Source: a virus
Lineage: Duplodnaviria; Heunggongvirae; Uroviricota; Caudoviricetes
Direction: 5' to 3' (one strand)
IMG/VR virus record: IMGVR_UViG_648276670_000009
Coordinates: 1-17,898 of that record
Length of the DNA stretch: 17,898 bases
Within the stretch, counting starts at the first letter, position 1, and every line of letters begins with the position of its first letter. Shown here piece after piece: positions 7,578 to 17,898 of this stretch. Below the pieces are notes generated by a model. That model had not been told where the DNA came from, did not search any database, and saw only the letters and a program-made list of their open reading frames with translations. Position numbers and translations under genes: made by a program.

Positions 7578-7688
7578 ATGCCCTCCATAGTAACCATGAG
7601 ACAATAATACGATATGTACTTTTGGAATGCAAACAAAAAATACATCTTGTGCATGGATGGTTTTAGTACAGAGCGTAATAATAAGGAT
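7578..7688. promoter_or_regulatory. OR-like divergent promoter/operator region (PR toward cro, PRM toward cI)
   Basis: On the minus strand, TTGCAT (7632..7627), 17-nt spacer, TATTAT (7609..7604) upstream of the cro leader; several GTAC / AATAC-containing partial palindromes are candidate operator half-sites. Operator boundaries are not resolved. Confidence 0.55.
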
Positions 7689-8348
7689 ATGAAAATGAAA
7701 TGGTATGAACTGGCTAGATCCAGAATGAAAGAGCTCGGCATAACTCAAGAGAAGTTAGCTGAAGAGCTTGGTATGACGCAGGGTGGAATTGGTCACTGGT
7801 TGCGCGGATCTCGTCATCCATCTCTTGACGAGATTGGTGTGGTGTTTAAATACCTTGGTATTGATAACGTCTCATTCAACCACGACGGTACATTTTCACC
7901 TGTTGGCGAATACTCATCTGCCCCCGTTAAAAAACAATATGAGTACCCTGTTTTTTCTCATGTTCAGGCCGGGATGTTCTCGCCTGAGCTTAGAACCTTT
8001 ACCAAAGGTGATGCGGAGAGATGGGTCAGCACAACCAAAAAAGCCAGTGATTGTGCGTTTTGGCTTGAAGTTGAAGGTAATTCCATGACCGCGCCAACAG
8101 GATCCAAGCCAAGCTTTCCTGACGGGATGTTAATTCTCGTTGACCCTGAGCAGGCTGTTGAGCCAGGTGATTTCTGCATAGCCAGACTTGGTGGTGACGA
8201 GTTTACCTTCAAGAAACTGATCAGGGATAGCGGTCAGGTGTTCCTACAGCCACTAAACCCGCAATATCCAATGATTCCATGCAATGATAGCTGTTCCGTA
8301 GTAGGGAAAGTTATCGCCAGCCAGTGGCCTGAAGAGACATTTAGTTAA
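7689..8348 (+). CDS. cI: CI repressor: lambda-like C-terminal S24/LexA-type autocleavage domain fused to a divergent N-terminal HTH domain
   Basis: C-terminal ~135 aa ([39 protein letters not shown]...[15 protein letters not shown]) near-identical to recalled lambda CI; the N-terminal ~90 aa is unlike lambda. Start could be 7689 or 7695 (MKMKW / MKW); the track ORF starts further upstream at 7614. Confidence 0.85.
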
Positions 8349-8572: not shown

Positions 8573-8682
8573 AGCATTCAAAGCAGAAAGCTTTGAGTAG
8601 CGCGAAATGCAGCTGCAAGACAGCAACCGTGGAGATAAGCATCACGGCGCGTTACTCAAAGCTAACTGACAGGAGAATCCAG

Positions 8683-9009
8683 ATGGATGCACAAACACGC
8701 CGCCGCGAACGTCGCGCAGAGAAACAGGCTCAATGGAAAGCAGCAAATCCCCTGTTGGTTGGGGTAAGCGCAAAACCAGTTAACCGCCCTATTCTCTCGC
8801 TGAATCGCAAACCGAAATCACGAGTAGAAAGCGCACTGAATCCGATAGACCTTACGGTGCTGGCTGAATACCACGAACAGATTGAAAGCAACCTGCAACG
8901 TATTGAGCGCAAGAATCAGCGCACATGGTACAGCAAGCCACGCAGTGAAATGGGTGTGACTTGTGTTGGTCGCCAGAAAATGAAATTAGGCAGCAAGCCA
9001 CTTATTTGA
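8683..9009 (+). CDS. N: Antitermination protein N
   Basis: From MDAQTRRRERRAEKQAQWKAANPLLVGVSAKPVNRPILSLNRKPKSRVESALNPIDLTVLAEYH..., near-identical to recalled lambda N (Arg-rich boxB-binding motif); AGGAG RBS before ATG 8683. The track ORF start at 8593 is not used. Confidence 0.9.
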   Translation: MDAQTRRRERRAEKQAQWKAANPLLVGVSAKPVNRPILSLNRKPKSRVESALNPIDLTVLAEYHEQIESNLQRIERKNQRTWYSKPRSEMGVTCVGRQKMKLGSKPLI

Positions 9010-11161: not shown

Positions 11162-11293
11162 ATGATTTACGCAATCGCGGGAGGCGCTCGCATGGGTGCC
11201 TTCCAACTAAATGAATCTTTACTTGAACGAATCACCCGTAAATTACGTGACGGATGGAAAAGAGTTGAGGTCTTATTATGCGCAATGAAATAG
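11162..11293 (+). CDS. cIII: CIII-like protease (FtsH) inhibitor, divergent C-terminus
   Basis: 43-aa ORF (below the track cut-off) MIYAIAGGARMGAFQLNESLLERITRKLRDGWKRVEVLLCAMK; core ESLLERITRKLRDGWKR matches recalled lambda CIII. Confidence 0.7.
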   Translation: MIYAIAGGARMGAFQLNESLLERITRKLRDGWKRVEVLLCAMK

Positions 11294-11430
11294 CCATCAA
11301 TCACCAGATGCTTCGTGCTGCACAGAACAAAGCAGTAATAGCCAGATTTATTGGTGATTCCAAAATGTGGCTTGAAGCAAATAAAGCGATGAAATCAGCT
11401 ATCAACCTTCCATGGTATCGCAGGAAATGA
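11278..11430 (+). CDS. kil: Kil-like host cell-division inhibitor
   Basis: 50-aa ORF MRNEIAINHQMLRAAQNKAVIARFIGDSKMWLEANKAMKSAINLPWYRRK; resembles recalled lambda Kil (…TFIGDEKMF…); overlaps the cIII stop; position matches lambda cIII-kil. Confidence 0.55.
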   Translation: MRNEIAINHQMLRAAQNKAVIARFIGDSKMWLEANKAMKSAINLPWYRRK

Positions 11431-11504
11431 GTTTTACAGATAACTGGTCAGACGAAGAATTCATTCGTCAGATGAAAGAATTAATCGGTAACGAAGGAGA
11501 TATT

Positions 11505-11675
11505 CATGTCACTTGCAACCACAGTGAAGGAGAGCAAGTTACAGAGACGCATGTACACGCAGCAGGCGTTAATGTATCGCCAGAAGGGAGATCGTGAAGG
11601 TGTTCGCGTATTTTTAAATGCGGCAAAGACTGAAGTATTAAATCAGCGTTATTTCCTTGGGCCATGTCCATTCTG
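11505..11675 (+). CDS. Hypothetical small protein (56 aa) upstream of erf (Arf-like position)
   Basis: ATG 11505 preceded by AGGAG at 7-nt spacing; MSLATTVKESKLQRRMYTQQALMYRQKGDREGVRVFLNAAKTEVLNQRYFLGPCPF. An alternative overlapping frame (track ORF 11412..11597, or ATG 11427 coupled to the kil stop) cannot be excluded. Confidence 0.45.
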
Positions 11676-11686
11676 AGAACAAACAT

Positions 11687-12292
11687 ATGAGCAAAGAATT
11701 TTACGCAAAACTGGCAGCTATTCAGGAGAACTTGAACGCGCCAAAGAATCAGTACAACTCATTCGGTAAATATAAATACAGAAGCTGCGAAGACATTCTT
11801 GAAGGCGTTAAGCCGTTACTGAATGGTCTGTTTTTATCAATCAGCGATGAAGTTGTGTTGATTGGTGATCGGTATTACGTGAAAGCCACGGCAACTATTA
11901 CCGATGGCGAAAACAGTCATACGGCAACCGCTCTTGCACGAGAGGAAGAAAGCAAGAAAGGAATGGATTCTGCACAAGTTACGGGAGCTACAAGCTCTTA
12001 TGCACGCAAGTATTGCCTCAATGGTTTGTTCGGCATTGATGATGCGAAAGATGCAGATACCGACGAGCATAAACATCAGCAGAACGCAGCAGCAAAGCAA
12101 TCAAAACCATCACCTACACCTGAACAGGTTCTAAAAGCATTCACTGACGCAGCATTGCAGAAAAACACCGTAGAAGAGCTTAAACAGGCGTTCGCCAAAG
12201 CGTGGAAGATGCTCGAAGGCACACCTGAGCAGCACAAAGCGCAGGACGTTTACAACATCAGACGAGACGAATTAGAAGGAGCGGCTGCTTAA
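11687..12292 (+). CDS. erf: Erf-family single-strand annealing recombination protein (P22 Erf-like)
   Basis: From MSKEFYAKLAAIQENLNAPKNQYNSFGKYKYRSCEDILEGVKPLLNGLFLSISDEVVLIGDRYYVKATATITDGENSH..., closely matching recalled P22 Erf. The track ORF begins at a TTG at 11657; the ATG at 11687 is used. Confidence 0.85.
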   Translation: MSKEFYAKLAAIQENLNAPKNQYNSFGKYKYRSCEDILEGVKPLLNGLFLSISDEVVLIGDRYYVKATATITDGENSHTATALAREEESKKGMDSAQVTGATSSYARKYCLNGLFGIDDAKDADTDEHKHQQNAAAKQSKPSPTPEQVLKAFTDAALQKNTVEELKQAFAKAWKMLEGTPEQHKAQDVYNIRRDELEGAAA

Positions 12293-12675
12293 TGGCACAT
12301 TCGATTACTGTAAGACTAAACAAGCCCGCAAGAGAGTTTCAGGCCGGGGAAAATATCGGATTCAACATCCGTGCTGGCGTTCAGTATTACGATCGCCAGA
12401 CAAAAAAGAAAGAATGGACAAACTACAGCGCCGTTGTATTTGCCAAGCCGGGAGCGCAAGCGGATTACTACCGTAGTGTTCTTGTTGAAGGTGGCATTGT
12501 GGAAATTACCGGAGAAAACATCAGGGTTGATGTTTATCAGGGGCAAAATGGTCAATCAATCACTCTTGAATTACTGAATGCAAAGATTGGATTTGCAACT
12601 TCAGGAAACAGCCAACAGCAGCAAAGTAGTAACCAGCAGAACACTCCTGTATACGACGATTCCATCCCATTCTGA
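12292..12675 (+). CDS. Single-stranded-DNA-binding protein-like (acidic C-terminal tail ending DDSIPF)
   Basis: 127 aa; Gln/Ser-rich linker and terminal ...PVYDDSIPF resemble the SSB C-terminal protein-interaction tail (DDDIPF); start overlaps the erf stop (TAATG). Confidence 0.65.
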   Translation: MAHSITVRLNKPAREFQAGENIGFNIRAGVQYYDRQTKKKEWTNYSAVVFAKPGAQADYYRSVLVEGGIVEITGENIRVDVYQGQNGQSITLELLNAKIGFATSGNSQQQQSSNQQNTPVYDDSIPF

Positions 12676-12698
12676 TTTAGAAAAATAAGGATTTAATT

Positions 12699-12992
12699 AT
12701 GCCAGCGCCTCTGTATGGTGCGGATGACGCGCGCCGCTGTTCCGGCAATTCCGTATCGGAGGTGCTGGATAAATTCAGAAAAAACTACGACCGGATAATG
12801 TCGCTACCGCAGGAAACGAAAGAGGAAAAGGAATTTCGCCATTGTATATGGCTTGCAGAGAAAGAAGAGCGCGAGCGAATTTACCAGACATCAATCCGAC
12901 CATTCCGCAAAGCAACATATACCCACTTCCCTGAAATCGACCCGCGCCTGCGTAATTACCGCTCACGCTATGGCGCTATCAGTAATAACTGA
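12699..12992 (+). CDS. Hypothetical protein (97 aa)
   Basis: ATG ORF with AAGGA upstream; no recognised family. Confidence 0.5.
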
Positions 12993-13002
12993 GGAATTTA
13001 CC

Positions 13003-13170
13003 ATGAGAGGACTTGCATACAATCCCGGCATTCTTCCGGCAGAAATGATTATTCGCCAACGCGTAAAGCCAATGCCATCGAGAGAGGAATTGCTTAAGAG
13101 AAATTCTTTTCCATCAGTGAATCAAAACAAATATCTGAATGCGATGTGGCGCAAAGGAGGCAGCCAGTGA
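13003..13170 (+). CDS. Hypothetical protein (55 aa)
   Basis: ATG 13003 preceded by GAGGAA; lies in the frame of track ORF 12853..13170, whose upstream part overlaps the previous gene. Confidence 0.45.
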
Positions 13171-13811
13171 ATAACCGCTTTTACATGATGTGCTTGCGTG
13201 AAACTGTGGGTAATAACGCTTCATTCCATTGCCATAACGGCAATGGTTACAGTTCTAATATCGATCGCGCTCATGTTTACACGCTGGAAGAAGCCCAAAA
13301 AGCCTGGAATTGTGGTCGAGATATCGATCAGCCTGTTTGCGCTGATAGCGTGGATGCAATGGCAGTGTGGCACGTTGATTGCCAGTACATCCCTACAGAA
13401 AGCCTGATTGAGTCAGATTGCACTGCGTATGTGGCCTACAAAAAAGGTAGCTGGAACGGCAACGATGTTTACTGGCTTCAACACGGTGGATTGCCAACAG
13501 ATGACTTCAGTAAAGCGACCATCTTTAGCGTCGCCAACAAAAACGAACCAGGAATAGTTTGGTTGCCATTTTCCATTGCTGATGCAGCAAAGCGCAGGAC
13601 GTTCAATATCAATAACTTTAACCGCAGAACAATGGTTCAGGGCGCAGGTTTGGTCATGCCTGACTGGTTGAAAGAGCAGAACAGAAGAAAGAAGTCGCGA
13701 AGCGGGAAGGTGCGTTGGAATTGTCCGCATTGCGGAAAAATCTCCTGGCAGTACAGCCCATATGATTTTGAAGGCTGTAGTGATTACAACTGTGAAGGAT
13801 GGCGAGAATGA
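13167..13811 (+). CDS. Hypothetical protein (214 aa) with C-terminal Cys-rich zinc-ribbon-like motif
   Basis: GTG 13167 preceded by AAAGGAGG at 6-nt spacing and overlapping the upstream stop (the track ORF starts at 13146); C-terminus WNCPHCGK...CSDYNCEGW. No recognised family. Confidence 0.55.
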
Positions 13812-14295
13812 CAATTGACTATCAGTCACTGCGTGAGGCGGCAGAGAAAGCAACGTGGGGAGACTGGGACTCATATAAACACACCGTGGCGCACGTGGTT
13901 ATGAGGTCCGACTAAGTAGTCAGGCCATTGCGCAACACGTTCTGAAAAACAACGCTGAATTTATTGCTGCCTTTAATCCAAAGGTTGCTTTGGCACTACT
14001 GGATGAACGGGAAAGAAACCAGCAATACATCAAACGCCGCGACCAGGAGAACGAGGATATTGCGCTAACGGTAGGGAAGCTGCGCGTTGAGCTTGAAGCA
14101 GAAAAACAGCGGGCAAAAGTTCTATTTATGGAAAATGCTCGGCTTAAGTCAGGTATAGCCGGTCTGATACACCTCGGTATTCGATATGCAGATGTTGAGG
14201 TCATGAAAATTGCTGGAGATGCCCAGCTTTCTACCCCATGCACTGACAGCATCATAAACAGCATTGCAACAGGCATTCGCATCAAAGGAGAGTAA
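13799..14295 (+). pseudogene. ea22-like gene, disrupted (N-terminal 38-codon piece and C-terminal piece in different frames)
   Basis: ATG 13799 encodes [38 protein letters not shown] then stops at 13913..13915; a different frame continues open from ~13916 (...QAIAQHVLKNNAEFIAAFNPKVALALLDERERNQQYIKRRDQENEDIALTVGKLRVELEAE...) to 14295. Both pieces resemble recalled Ea22-family proteins. Confidence 0.5.
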
Positions 14296-15920: not shown

Positions 15921-16121
15921 ATGCAACACGAACTACAGCCTGATTCACTGGTTGATTTGAAATTCATCATGGCTGATACTGGCTTCGGTAAAACCTTCAT
16001 CTATGACCGGATTAAGTCCGGAGACCTGCCTAAAGCCAAAGTTATCCACGGGCGAGCAAGATGGTTATATCGTGACCATTGTGAATTCAAAAATAAGCTC
16101 TTAAGCCGCGCCAATGGGTAA
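15921..16121 (+). CDS. torI: AlpA/TorI-family excisionase (winged-helix Xis-like), located at the att-proximal end of the prophage
   Basis: 66 aa MQHELQPDSLVDLKFIMADTGFGKTFIYDRIKSGDLPKAKVIHGRARWLYRDHCEFKNKLLSRANG; AlpA-type pattern (TG-x4-IY-x2-I-x2-G-x-LP ... W); the identification as TorI of KplE1/CPS-53 is from memory and position next to an argW-type att, and is not verified. Confidence 0.6.
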   Translation: MQHELQPDSLVDLKFIMADTGFGKTFIYDRIKSGDLPKAKVIHGRARWLYRDHCEFKNKLLSRANG

Positions 16122-16194
16122 AATAGCGGGTAAAATATTTTTCACATCTAAAAAACACCATTCCAATCAATCCCCTGCCGCGTCAAGTAGATGT

Positions 16195-16209
16195 CTGCAG
16201 GGGACACCA
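16195..16209 (+). other. Prophage attachment-site core: 3'-terminal 15 nt of a tRNA (CTGCAGGGGACACCA, argW-like) marking the prophage/chromosome junction
   Basis: Sequence ends in the acceptor 3' strand + discriminator + CCA, but no tRNA body precedes it (16135..16194 is unrelated). Typical of the displaced tRNA 3' end left at a prophage end. Confidence 0.6.
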
Positions 16210-16650
16210 GATACCCTTCAAACGAAATCTACCTTCACCCCGTAAAAGATGGGTTTGGCAGCACACTTGCCTTATATCTACTCATTTTTACTGCAACAGG
16301 TTGAAATCTCAGCACTGTCAGAAAGCGCTGATGACTAAACAGCCCTGGGCCGGGCGATGTAACCATCACACAGAATCCTGATAGCGAAATATGGCGTGAC
16401 TCGATACTTCACTCCGCAATGCATTCCTTGATGAATTCGCAGGACCGTGATACACGGGACAGGTCACTGAATGACGACAATGTCCTGGAAATCAGCGAAC
16501 CGCGCATCTGAAGTACATTTGAGCGACTGTACCAGAACATGAATGAGGCGTTTGGATTAGGCGATTATTAGCAGGGCTAAGCATTTTACTATTATTATTT
16601 TCCGGTTGAGGGATATAGAGCTATCGACAACAACCGGAAAAAGTTTACGT

Positions 16651-17898
16651 CTATATTGCTGAAGGTACAGGCGTTTCCATAACTATTTGCTCGCGTTTTT
16701 TACTCAAGAAGAAAATGCCAAATAGCAACATCAGGCAGACAATACCCGAAATTGCGAAGAAAACTGTCTGGTAGCCTGCGTGGTCAAAGAGTATCCCAGT
16801 CGGCGTTGAAAGCAGCACAATCCCAAGCGAACTGGCAATTTGAAAACCAATCAGAAAGATCGTCGACGACAGGCGCTTATCAAAGTTTGCCACGCTGTAT
16901 TTGAAGACGGATATGACACAAAGTGGAACCTCAATGGCATGTAACAACTTCACTAATGAAATAATCCAGGGGTTAACGAACAGCGCGCAGGAAAGGATAC
17001 GCAACGCCATAATCACAACTCCGATAAGTAATGCATTTTTTGGCCCTACCCGATTCACAAAGAAAGGAATAATCGCCATGCACAGCGCTTCGAGTACCAC
17101 CTGGAATGAGTTGAGATAACCATACAGGCGCGTTCCTACATCGTGTGATTCGAATAAACCTGCATAAAAGACAGGAAAAAGTTGTTGATCAAAAATGTTA
17201 TAGAAAGACCACGTCCCCACAATAAATATGACGAAAACCCAGAAGTTTCGATCCTTGAAAACTGCGATAAAATCCTCTTTTTTTACCCCTCCCGCATCTG
17301 CCGCTACGCACTGGTGATCCTTATCTTTAAAACGCATGTTGATCATCATAAATACAGCGCCAAATAGCGAGACCAACCAGAAGTTGATATGGGGACTGAT
17401 ACTAAAAAATATGCCGGCAAAGAACGCGCCAATAGCATAGCCAAAAGATCCCCAGGCGCGCGCTGTTCCATATTCGAAATGAAAATTTCGCGCCATTTTT
17501 TCGGTGAAGCTATCAAGCAAACCGCATCCCGCCAGATACCCCAAGCCAAAAAATAGCGCCCCCAGAATTAGACCTACAGAAAAATTGCTTTGCAGTAACG
17601 GTTCATAAACGTAAATCATAAACGGTCCGGTCAAGACCAGGATGAAACTCATACACCAGATGAGCGGTTTCTTCAGACCGAGTTTATCCTGAACGATGCC
17701 GTAGAACATCATAAATAGAATGCTGGTAAACTGGTTGACCGAATAAAGTGTACCTAATTCCGTCCCTGTCAACCCTAGATGTCCTTTCAGCCAAATAGCG
17801 TATAACGACCACCACAGCGACCAGGAAATAAAAAAGAGAAATGAGTAACTGGATGCAAAACGATAGTACGCATTTCTGAATGGAATATTCAGTGCCAT
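16651..17898 (-). CDS. cscB: LacY-family oligosaccharide:H+ symporter, sucrose permease CscB-like
   Basis: 415-aa ORF with 12 hydrophobic segments, starting at the last base of the window (ATG 17898..17896); recalled as matching CscB of the E. coli csc sucrose regulon, which is known to lie near argW. Confidence 0.7.
   Translation of the reverse strand: MALNIPFRNAYYRFASSYSFLFFISWSLWWSLYAIWLKGHLGLTGTELGTLYSVNQFTSILFMMFYGIVQDKLGLKKPLIWCMSFILVLTGPFMIYVYEPLLQSNFSVGLILGALFFGLGYLAGCGLLDSFTEKMARNFHFEYGTARAWGSFGYAIGAFFAGIFFSISPHINFWLVSLFGAVFMMINMRFKDKDHQCVAADAGGVKKEDFIAVFKDRNFWVFVIFIVGTWSFYNIFDQQLFPVFYAGLFESHDVGTRLYGYLNSFQVVLEALCMAIIPFFVNRVGPKNALLIGVVIMALRILSCALFVNPWIISLVKLLHAIEVPLCVISVFKYSVANFDKRLSSTIFLIGFQIASSLGIVLLSTPTGILFDHAGYQTVFFAISGIVCLMLLFGIFFLSKKREQIVMETPVPSAI

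Follow-up and report, generated by a model that had tools for sequence, protein, structure and literature searches.

Abc2, a DUF2737 protein and a probable stand-alone accessory protein at the distal end of a lambdoid early-left operon

Background

In lambdoid phages, a Rec module has been defined as a contiguous set of an annealing protein, an SSB and a nuclease or anti-RecBCD function (PMC12315714), and modules of the type considered here are described both in that survey and in bioRxiv 10.64898/2026.07.10.737580. The closest described relative of the first gene of the present interval is Abc2 of the Salmonella phage P22, a protein of 97 residues that binds RecC and redirects RecBCD, for which a cryo-EM structure with RecBCD has been solved (PDB 8B1T/8B1U; PMC9836394) and whose Pro68 enters the active site of the host protein PpiB (PMC9836394). 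Abc2 ends an Erf-type recombination module in the P22 pL operon, has Abc1 as its upstream partner, and is followed after 10 nt by orf56. For the third gene, the closest described relative is Upf87.6 of phage P7, which lies in a C1-controlled operon after upf87.4, itself preceded by an annotated DNA primase gene, and whose record carries a note of a putative tyrosine phosphatase.

The window analysed here, a stretch of 17,898 nucleotides from a tailed-phage record of IMG/VR with E. coli as host, contains a three-gene interval between an SSB-like gene and the remnant of an Ead/Ea22-like gene. The initial annotation had described this interval as a block of uncharacterised function whose three proteins matched nothing recognisable. 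The description as uncharacterised holds for ORF3, a member of phrog_2457, but not for ORF1, which is the characterised anti-RecBCD protein Abc2 with a solved structure, and the absence of matches is not correct, ORF2 being a DUF2737 protein.

Results and discussion

Gene order and coding status

The features of the interval and its flanks are collected in Table 1. The three frames, the GTG at 13167 overlapping the preceding stop codon, the ribosome-binding site before it and the terminal CPHC...C-x4-C motif were all found where the initial annotation had placed them, and the tight packing with coupled or overlapping starts was likewise confirmed: the start of ORF3 shares the tetranucleotide GTGA (13167-13170) with the stop of ORF2, and the 3' end of ORF3 overlaps the Ead/Ea22-like remnant by 13 nt. 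Both flanks also agree with their first description, as the upstream gene matches the SSB family phrog_44 and the downstream fragments match the Pfam family Ead_Ea22 (PF13935; E 1.7e-5, below the curated cutoff, for one fragment and E 1.2e-13 for the other), with the C-terminal part resuming in another frame at 13990-14295. A further downstream protein of 266 residues was considered as the 'EaA' protein of mEp043, which has the same length, and was rejected since no similarity exists between them.

Table 1. Features of the interval and its immediate context (positions in the window)
Feature	Position	Strand	Remarks
56-aa protein	11506-11676	+	100% identical to HK75 and HK022 protein
Erf	11687-12292	+	Pfam ERF PF04404, E 8.4e-45
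SSB-like protein, HK97 gp40 type	12292-12675	+	phrog_44 SSB, E 2.9e-28
ORF1 Shine-Dalgarno, AAGGA	12687-12691	+	upstream of abc2 ATG
ORF1, abc2	12699-12992	+	ATG 12699 to TGA 12992, 97 aa
ORF2 Shine-Dalgarno, GAGGA	12991-12995	+	10-nt gap from ORF1 stop to ORF2
ORF2, DUF2737 gene	13003-13170	+	ATG 13003 to TGA 13170, 55 aa, pI 11.0
ORF3 Shine-Dalgarno, AAAGGAGG	13153-13160	+	6 nt 5' of GTG 13167
ORF3, phrog_2457 member	13167-13811	+	GTG 13167 to TGA 13811, 214 aa
ORF3 N-terminal domain	13167-13586	+	residues 1-140, pI 4.8
ORF3 basic linker and putative C4 zinc ribbon	13587-13808	+	residues 141-214, pI 9.8
Ead/Ea22-like N-terminal remnant	13799-13915	+	ATG 13799; context, outside the block

A mechanical list of open reading frames had ORF3 beginning at GTG 13146, which would give 221 aa; the start at 13167 is preferred because all 29 aligned homologues start no more than 1-3 residues from it and the annotated length of P7 upf87.6 is also 214 aa. 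The three frames are coding rather than chance open reading frames, given the Pfam matches of ORF1 and ORF2, the homologues of ORF3 and the low dN/dS of abc2 and orf56, and the non-coding alternative was not borne out. Public databases already contain the exact sequence of each of the three proteins, and two of them are annotated there by family.

Abc2 and the upstream recombination module

ORF1 matches the Pfam family Anti-RecBCD_p2 (PF11043) over positions 1-97 of 97 with E 1.8e-63 and 211.2 bits, against a curated cutoff of 25 bits, and it also matches phrog_656 ('abc2 anti-RecBCD', E 9.3e-55) and the P22 protein in PDB 8b1t_A (E 8.7e-58). The two proteins have the same length and 89 of 97 residues in common, and a dN/dS of 0.10 was obtained for abc2 in comparison with P22. 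By these comparisons ORF1 is shown to be the ortholog of P22 Abc2, and homology to a characterised phage protein, the finding that the initial annotation had named as contrary to its own reading, is thus present for this gene. The I66-R67-P68 segment is conserved with 8b1t_A, so that Pro68 is common to both proteins; of the eight substitutions that separate them, three (A11, R32 and S65) fall within the ordered RecC-binding part, residues 3-66. Activity as Abc2 would follow from homology at 92% identity: the protein is expected to bind RecC of the host RecBCD near the Chi-recognition domains, as its P22 counterpart does, and would block the normal Chi response, redirecting RecBCD to serve Erf, the annealing protein encoded two genes upstream.

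Like its P22 counterpart, gene 1 ends an Erf-type recombination module in a pL operon, with N, cIII and Kil located on the same strand upstream of Erf. It closes a module of the HK75/HK022 type that consists of the 56-aa protein, Erf, the SSB-like protein and Abc2. The upstream partner is thus an SSB-like protein of the HK97 gp40 type where P22 has Abc1, and the two show no detectable similarity; the SSB-like protein was considered as a diverged Abc1 and this was rejected, as the pair gives no alignment. Abc2 fits the Rec module definition of PMC12315714, whereas DUF2737 and ORF3, although contiguous with it, are absent from the Rec module proteins of that survey.

DUF2737 as the fixed neighbour of abc2

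ORF2 matches Pfam DUF2737 (PF10930; E 9.2e-32, 109.2 bits against a cutoff of 25 bits, positions 1-51 of 53) and phrog_1117, which places it as a full-length member of the family of P22 orf56 and HK97 gp38. It has the size of P22 orf56 and the same position 10 nt after abc2, and a dN/dS of 0.12 relative to P22 indicates purifying selection. The DUF2737 gene lies directly after abc2 in 80 of 80 IMG/VR loci examined, as it does in P22, and an Ead/Ea22-like gene comes after ORF3 in 80 of 80 close loci, but these linkages in part reflect shared recent ancestry because most of the sequences in the 80-locus samples come from E. coli and are nearly identical (96-99% identity). At the DNA level, abc2 and DUF2737 together are covered to at least 80% in 209 of 238 phage records, with identities down to 73% and P22 abc2-orf56 included. 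Gene 2 can be described as a small basic protein that is the fixed neighbour of abc2.

In most phages, the DNA homology of this pair stops at query position 453, which corresponds to position 13151 of the window. The C-terminal tail of DUF2737 occurs in discrete variants, each paired with different downstream genes, and the last eight or so residues of gene 2 (RKGGSQ) differ from those of P22 orf56 (RKDKCNR), since this tail forms the junction with the downstream gene, which is not the same in the two phages. In the window, as read from the sequence, the ribosome-binding site AAAGGAGG sits inside DUF2737 at its 3' end and codes for part of the ...RKGGSQ tail. The 3' end of DUF2737 is thus a conserved junction that provides a ribosome-binding site and an overlapping start for whichever gene follows, so that downstream genes are translationally coupled to it. 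In addition, DUF2737 closes a RecT-type module in phage Kapi1, and it might, more tentatively, be a small adaptor working with recombination modules of different types. Its AlphaFold model is of low confidence (pLDDT 62) with three short helices, and no mention of DUF2737 was found in the literature searched.

Three independent pieces in a mosaic operon

The initial annotation had treated the three genes as one co-translated cassette with an accessory or defence function, and the overlapping or closely spaced starts and stops, together with the lack of internal promoter-like or terminator-like sites, are what such a unit would display. However, the whole operon is packed equally tightly, gene 1 is Abc2 and hence part of the upstream recombination module, and the abc2-DUF2737 pair found in every one of the Abc2 loci is accompanied by ORF3 in only seven of the 80. 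ORF3 is just as frequent in P1/P7-like phage-plasmids that have no abc2 in the vicinity, and it also occurs apart from abc2-DUF2737 in phages of Yersinia, Moellerella, Vibrio and Pseudomonas. Contrary to the suggestion of a defence function, none of the three proteins matched a family of PADLOC-DB v2 at E <= 0.01. The comparison of gene neighbourhoods already contradicts the single cassette, which is extremely unlikely.

The interval is best explained, with a probability of roughly 0.8, as three independent pieces rather than one system, namely Abc2, DUF2737 and a stand-alone accessory ORF3, and it would represent the distal end of an N-antiterminated early-left (pL) operon in a mosaic lambdoid prophage. 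Gene 3 is placed as a stand-alone accessory gene between DUF2737 and the Ead/Ea22-like gene, in a slot that is hypervariable. The earlier designation of this region as a hot spot for cargo is well supported, as DUF2737 and the Ead/Ea22-like gene are separated by anything from 4 to 1484 bp in related loci, and an HNH endonuclease takes the place of ORF3 in the closest E. coli prophage.

The ORF3 family and its predicted structure

ORF3 matches phrog_2457 over nearly its entire length (E 6.6e-119, positions 1-214 against 1-220 of 222) and fits the conserved length of this family, about 210-220 aa; all 47 members of alignment A2 match the same family. A word-indexed search recovered 159 homologues and a full profile search 886 cluster representatives at 50% identity, extending from lambdoid and P1-like phages of E. 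coli to phages of Vibrio, Acinetobacter and Pseudomonas. ORF3 and P7 Upf87.6 share 98.6% identity along the full 214 residues. The two genes differ in what precedes them, as ORF3 comes after DUF2737 within the pL operon of a lambdoid prophage, unlike the P7 gene, but in both cases an Ead/Ea22-like gene comes next with the same 13-nt overlap. No match to ORF3 was found in Pfam, NCBIfam or PADLOC, and when 47 diverse family members were scanned singly against Pfam only scattered sub-threshold zinc-ribbon matches appeared. Neither Upf87.6, nor the tested accessions, nor peptide strings of ORF2 and ORF3 were found to be mentioned in the literature searched.

The AlphaFold model of ORF3 has a pLDDT of 92.9, and no neighbour of the predicted fold was found in the PDB. 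In the N-terminal domain, residues Y28, Q73, G98 and N99 are invariant across the family (alignments A1 and A2), and versions consisting of this domain alone exist. A possible internal duplication, residues 6-44 against 88-126, is suggestive only (hhalign profile-profile comparison, P 8e-4), and self-alignment of the single sequence gave no significant signal (z = 0.03). Some family members are longer and have additional regions without Pfam domains; one of these proteins carries phrog_24658, likewise uncharacterised.

The C-terminal part consists of a basic linker with KRRTF... and RRKKSRSGK stretches followed by C186-P-H-C189, 14 residues, and C204-x4-C209 (nt 13722-13793). C186, C189 and C204 are present in 30 of 30 sequences and C209 in 28 of 30, and the first three are retained in all 40 distant members in which the C-terminal region is present; ORF3 thus ends in a conserved putative C4 zinc ribbon of the form CxxC...CxnC, in accordance with the zinc-ribbon-like arrangement noted at first. 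Sequence searches of the PDB with the single protein and two profiles gave weak matches to this tail only, which resembles zinc-finger proteins and the ribosomal zinc-ribbon proteins eL43 and uS14 at non-significant E-values of 0.02-0.5. These zinc-ribbon matches could reflect composition alone. Like ORF3, eL43/L37a and uS14 type Z combine a basic helical stretch, a CxxC, a spacer and a second cysteine pair, a resemblance of architecture in which homology is not demonstrated, and the N-terminal 140 residues of ORF3 have no counterpart in them.

A function as protein tyrosine phosphatase, as stated in the P7 record for Upf87.6, would account for the fit of residues 20-32 to the PROSITE-style pattern [LIVMF]HCxxGxxx[STC][STAGP]x[LIVMFY]. 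Its probability is nevertheless negligible, since the proposed catalytic Cys22 is not conserved, being replaced in 6 of 30 close and 45 of 47 distant relatives (by Ala, Gly, Lys, Arg or Ser in 43 of the 47), and the identification is refuted. The pattern as a whole is kept in only one of the 47 distant members, the C-x5-R position lacks an Arg and has a Tyr instead, the model shows a beta-hairpin and not a P-loop for this segment, and no phosphatase appeared in the Pfam or PDB searches.

Possible roles of ORF3

Homologues of ORF3 are located in early, DNA-metabolism regions of both temperate and virulent phages. For instance, in prophages of Moellerella they follow DnaB or a DnaC-like loader, and elsewhere an NAD-dependent DNA ligase or a RusA-like resolvase; in Vibrio phage D80 the homologue is preceded by an exonuclease and a Mu Gam-like protein and followed by a DNA methyltransferase, and in Pseudomonas phage F116 it is near three DNA methyltransferases. 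No fixed partner was found among these neighbourhoods, phrog_874 recurring in just two contexts, F116 and an Acinetobacter prophage. Early phage regions are rich in DNA-metabolism genes anyway, which makes the neighbourhood argument for ORF3 a weak one.

Transcription from pL would imply that ORF3 is made early in lytic growth. Its basic zinc-ribbon tail may bind nucleic acid, and the conserved N-terminal domain may engage a DNA-transaction factor or a factor of host repair or defence. As the zinc ribbon is missing from some members of the family, binding of nucleic acid cannot be the whole function of the family. The fuller proposal, that the family is structurally new, with a duplicated alpha/beta N-terminal domain that has no solved relative and is fused to a basic zinc ribbon, and acts in early infection either on DNA ends or on a conserved factor of host DNA repair or defence, is doubtful and is put forward only tentatively.

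ORF3 may instead be a single-gene counter-defence inhibitor of a host immune or repair nuclease, encoded beside the anti-RecBCD gene in a region of anti-defence accessory genes, which is possible though rather unlikely. A hypervariable slot next to abc2 is the pattern by which the screen of bioRxiv 10.1101/2023.04.06.535777 looked for counter-defence genes, the occupants of the slot differ among close relatives, the N-terminal domain of ORF3 is acidic, and the gene occurs in early operons of virulent as well as temperate phages; moreover, RecBCD inhibitors trigger abortive systems such as OLD, which would select for nearby counter-measures. However, the family is without any anti-defence annotation, and peptides of ORF2 and ORF3 are absent from the supplements of the screen's follow-up paper (PMC12373910) and from the literature searched. 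In addition, its length and sequence are strongly conserved from phages of E. coli to those of Vibrio, Acinetobacter and Pseudomonas, and because of this conservation across hosts a conserved DNA-transaction target is favoured over a fast-evolving immune target.

Expression in the lysogen as a prophage defence or superinfection-exclusion moron is very unlikely, despite the variable prophage region in which ORF3 resides and the independent transcription suggested by the initial annotation. No plus-strand promoter-like or terminator-like site was found between 11608 and 14797, and therefore nothing suggests transcription independent of pL. ORF3 is embedded in the pL operon and translationally coupled to it, the P7 copy lies within a C1-repressed operon, the virulent phage Av-05 carries a homologue, and PADLOC gave no match.

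Conclusions

As a discovery the interval is of little importance, gene 1 being a textbook anti-RecBCD protein. The tyrosine phosphatase note on P7 Upf87.6 is unsupported and should not be propagated. With 886 representatives, a confidently predicted fold without a PDB neighbour, and a location beside replication, recombination and DNA-modification genes, the ORF3 family is a reasonable candidate for functional screens.

Identity and coding status of the three genes

For the three frames between the SSB-like gene and the Ead/Ea22-like fragments, the coordinates, the overlapping GTG start of ORF3 and its C-terminal cysteine arrangement were confirmed as initially annotated. The start codon of ORF3 overlaps the stop codon of ORF2 in the sequence GTGA, the upstream ribosome-binding site region carries AAAGGAGG at 13153-13160, and the ORF3 C-terminus consists of C186-x2-C189, 14 residues, and then C204-x4-C209. 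A mechanical ORF call places the start of ORF3 at an upstream GTG (13146, giving 221 aa); the start lies near 13167, with a spread of a few residues, in 29 of 29 aligned homologues, and the P7 gene is annotated with 214 aa. Judged from sequence, all three frames are truly coding, given the strong family matches, the hundreds of ORF3 homologues, and dN/dS values against P22 of 0.10 for abc2 and 0.12 for orf56. The initial annotation recognised no match for any of the proteins, which does not hold. Public E. coli records already contain each of the three proteins in identical form, under the names 'phage anti-RecBCD protein', 'DUF2737 family protein' and 'hypothetical protein'.

Features of the prophage early region and its end
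Feature	Coordinates	Strand	Basis
cI-like repressor	7614-8348	+	family searches
N	8593-9009	+	family searches
Two ORFs, 210 and 108 aa	9019-10023	+	
Coiled-coil protein, 323 aa	10166-11137	+	
cIII and Kil	11162-11430	+	family searches
56-aa protein	11506-11676	+	identity to HK75 and HK022 proteins
Erf	11687-12292	+	family searches
SSB-like protein	12292-12675	+	family searches
ORF1 (abc2), 97 aa	12699 ATG - 12992 TGA	+	
ORF2 (DUF2737), 55 aa	13003 ATG - 13170 TGA	+	
ORF3, 214 aa	13167 GTG - 13811 TGA	+	
Ead/Ea22-like, 38-aa N-terminal piece	13799-13915	+	family searches
Ead/Ea22-like, 101-aa C-terminal piece	13990-14295	+	family searches
ea8.5	downstream of ORF3, before the phrog_887 match	+	family searches
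phrog_887-matching protein, 266 aa	14838-15638	+	family searches
TorI	15921-16121	+	family searches
Host MFS-transporter gene	after TorI	-	

Abc2 and its recombination module

The Pfam PF11043 match of ORF1 is full-length (211 bits, E 1.8e-63), and 89 of its 97 residues, the conserved Pro68 among them, are identical in P22 Abc2 as resolved by cryo-EM together with RecBCD (8B1T and 8B1U); by sequence, it is Abc2. P22 Abc2 binds the RecC subunit of RecBCD close to the domains that recognise Chi and prevents the normal Chi response. It leaves the helicase activity unblocked and is thought to turn the complex into a machine serving the phage recombinase Erf; Pro68 occupies the active site of host PpiB (PMC9836394).

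The module is of the HK75/HK022 type, with the order 56-aa protein, Erf, SSB-like protein and Abc2. The 56-aa protein is 100% identical to the protein encoded just upstream of erf in HK75, HK022, HK446 and mEp043, where RefSeq labels it 'recombinase', and its position makes it the counterpart of HK75 Gp33, which is reported to be enough on its own to set off the P2 OLD abortive system (2026 preprint, bioRxiv 10.64898/2026.07.10.737580). A longer ORF that overlaps it (11412-11597) is unlikely to be the true gene. Pfam gave no match for the SSB-like gene, and of the SSB PHROG it covers the C-terminal part only; its product is of the HK97 gp40 type, named 'SSB-1b' from its predicted fold (PMC12315714). 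The gene fills the place of Abc1 in P22, to which its product has no similarity and is unrelated.

DUF2737 and its 3' junction

ORF2 belongs to PF10930 (E 9.2e-32), as do P22 orf56 and HK97 gp38. Members of this family occur only in Escherichia, Salmonella and Shigella and share at least 72% identity throughout. The small protein is basic, with a pI of 11.0, its structure model shows three short helices at low confidence, and a literature search for DUF2737 found no mention of it. The gene directly follows abc2 in all 80 IMG/VR loci picked by Abc2 similarity, and the DNA of the pair is at least 80% covered in 209 of 238 phage records, at identities down to 73%. In phage Kapi1, DUF2737 occurs without abc2, closing a RecT-type module, again just ahead of an Ead/Ea22 gene.

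DNA shared with most relatives ends at 13151, just upstream of the ORF3 ribosome-binding site. The last 7-11 residues of DUF2737 (window 13140-13170, plus strand; loci L016-L174 of the comparison set) take discrete forms, namely RKGG[SNK]Q (here RKGGSQ), RSGKK and RSKKDYVKK, each of which pairs with particular downstream genes. Because of this homology break and the matched tail variants, the 3' end of the DUF2737 gene is a recombination junction and translational-coupling cassette. The coding tail also provides the following gene with its ribosome-binding site and start region, and marks a mosaic boundary.

A variable slot rather than a three-gene unit

The three genes are not a unit. ORF3 is present in only 7 of the 80 Abc2 loci, and DUF2737 and the Ead/Ea22-like gene are separated by anything between 4 and 1484 bp. 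In the closest E. coli prophage (strain CH4804, locus L183, 13179-13787), a 202-aa HNH endonuclease of nearly equal length occupies exactly the slot of ORF3, and a DUF5405 gene fills it in other loci. Among 80 loci picked by ORF3 similarity, the upstream neighbour is a P7 primase-like or Upf87.4 gene in 39, DUF2737 in 27, and in the remaining 14 no tested query matched there; the Ead/Ea22-like gene lies downstream in all 80, a linkage that partly reflects shared ancestry, since these loci are 96-99% identical. Across 5,426 complete E. coli genomes, some portion of the block is found in 1,515 and at least 80% of it in only 59, often with inserts. The tight packing, the accessory hot spot and the zinc ribbon noted initially stand, but the 'unknown three-gene block' does not, with gene 1 being Abc2 and gene 2 DUF2737.

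The 13-nt overlap of the ORF3 end with the conserved N-terminal coding sequence of the Ead/Ea22-like gene exactly matches the P7 arrangement and looks like a recurrent recombination junction. The latter gene is split between two frames here, which suggests a pseudogene.

Operon setting

The window is a mosaic lambdoid prophage, and none of the complete E. coli genomes holds more than 73% of it. As promoter-like and terminator-like sites are absent from the plus strand between 11608 and 14797, the block looks like a section of the N-antiterminated early-left operon.

Several other features were observed. The 323-aa protein between N and cIII is a coiled coil rich in Glu, Ala, Lys and Arg, labelled 'coiled-coil domain-containing' or 'TolA' in related genomes; the two further ORFs of this interval have no Pfam match. 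The 266-aa protein matches phrog_887 'queuine tRNA-ribosyltransferase' (E 4.4e-102) but neither a Pfam nor an NCBIfam model; possibly it is a DNA-modification enzyme of the DpdA kind within the ea region, and it is unrelated to 'EaA' of phage mEp043, which is of equal length. A TorI-type excisionase gene, 100% identical to the torI-annotated gene of strain CH4804, closes the prophage (region 15921-17898), with no integrase gene between it and the host oligosaccharide MFS-transporter gene.

The ORF3 family and its possible role

ORF3 matches phrog_2457 over its full length (E 6.6e-119) and has no match in Pfam, NCBIfam or PADLOC. It is 98.6% identical to P7 Upf87.6, with near-identical copies in P1-like phage-plasmids, SJ46, IME10, Stx2c phages and the virulent phage Av-05. 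At 27-46% identity, more distant members come from 129 Vibrio phage records, Pseudomonas phage F116 and Burkholderia phiE131, and a full profile search returned 886 representatives at E <= 1e-3. The family architecture is constant, with an acidic N-terminal domain (residues 1-140, pI 4.8; invariant Y28, Q73, G98 and N99; motifs VDxQ and GND) followed by a basic linker and terminal C4 zinc ribbon (residues 141-214, pI 9.8), and some members comprise the N-terminal domain alone. An internal duplication within this domain is possible (residues 6-44 versus 88-126, hhalign P 8e-4). The P7 label 'putative tyrosine protein phosphatase' stems from a pattern that residues 20-32 fit by chance; 45 of 47 distant members have another residue in place of the supposed catalytic Cys.

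Distant homologues have no fixed partner and always lie in early regions amid DNA-transaction genes. In Yersinia prophages, for instance, the homologue lies between repressor and integrase, and in Moellerella prophages it comes straight after DnaB or a DnaC-like loader, where the nin region begins. In Vibrio phage D80 an exonuclease and a Mu Gam-like protein precede it and a DNA methyltransferase follows, and in F116 it is downstream of three DNA methyltransferases; others follow an NAD-dependent ligase or a RusA-like resolvase, and the P7 homologue is in a C1-controlled operon. The sole recurrent neighbour seen was phrog_874 (unknown function), which directly adjoins the homologue in two very distant phages, upstream in one and downstream in the other (F116 gp7, L007 3327-4004; Acinetobacter indicus prophage, L009 6644-7393).

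The lack of an own promoter here, the presence of ORF3 in virulent phages and the absence of any defence-system model match favour a role in the lytic phase over a defence gene active in the lysogen. The protein would be made early in infection, its basic zinc-ribbon tail may bind nucleic acid, and the partner of the conserved N-terminal domain would be a DNA-transaction or host repair/defence factor; a role given over to counter-defence is a live, if rather unlikely, alternative. With all three exact sequences previously deposited, the finding is an ordinary one, and the interest left lies in ORF3, whose confident structure model has no relative among solved structures and which represents a large uncharacterised phage family.
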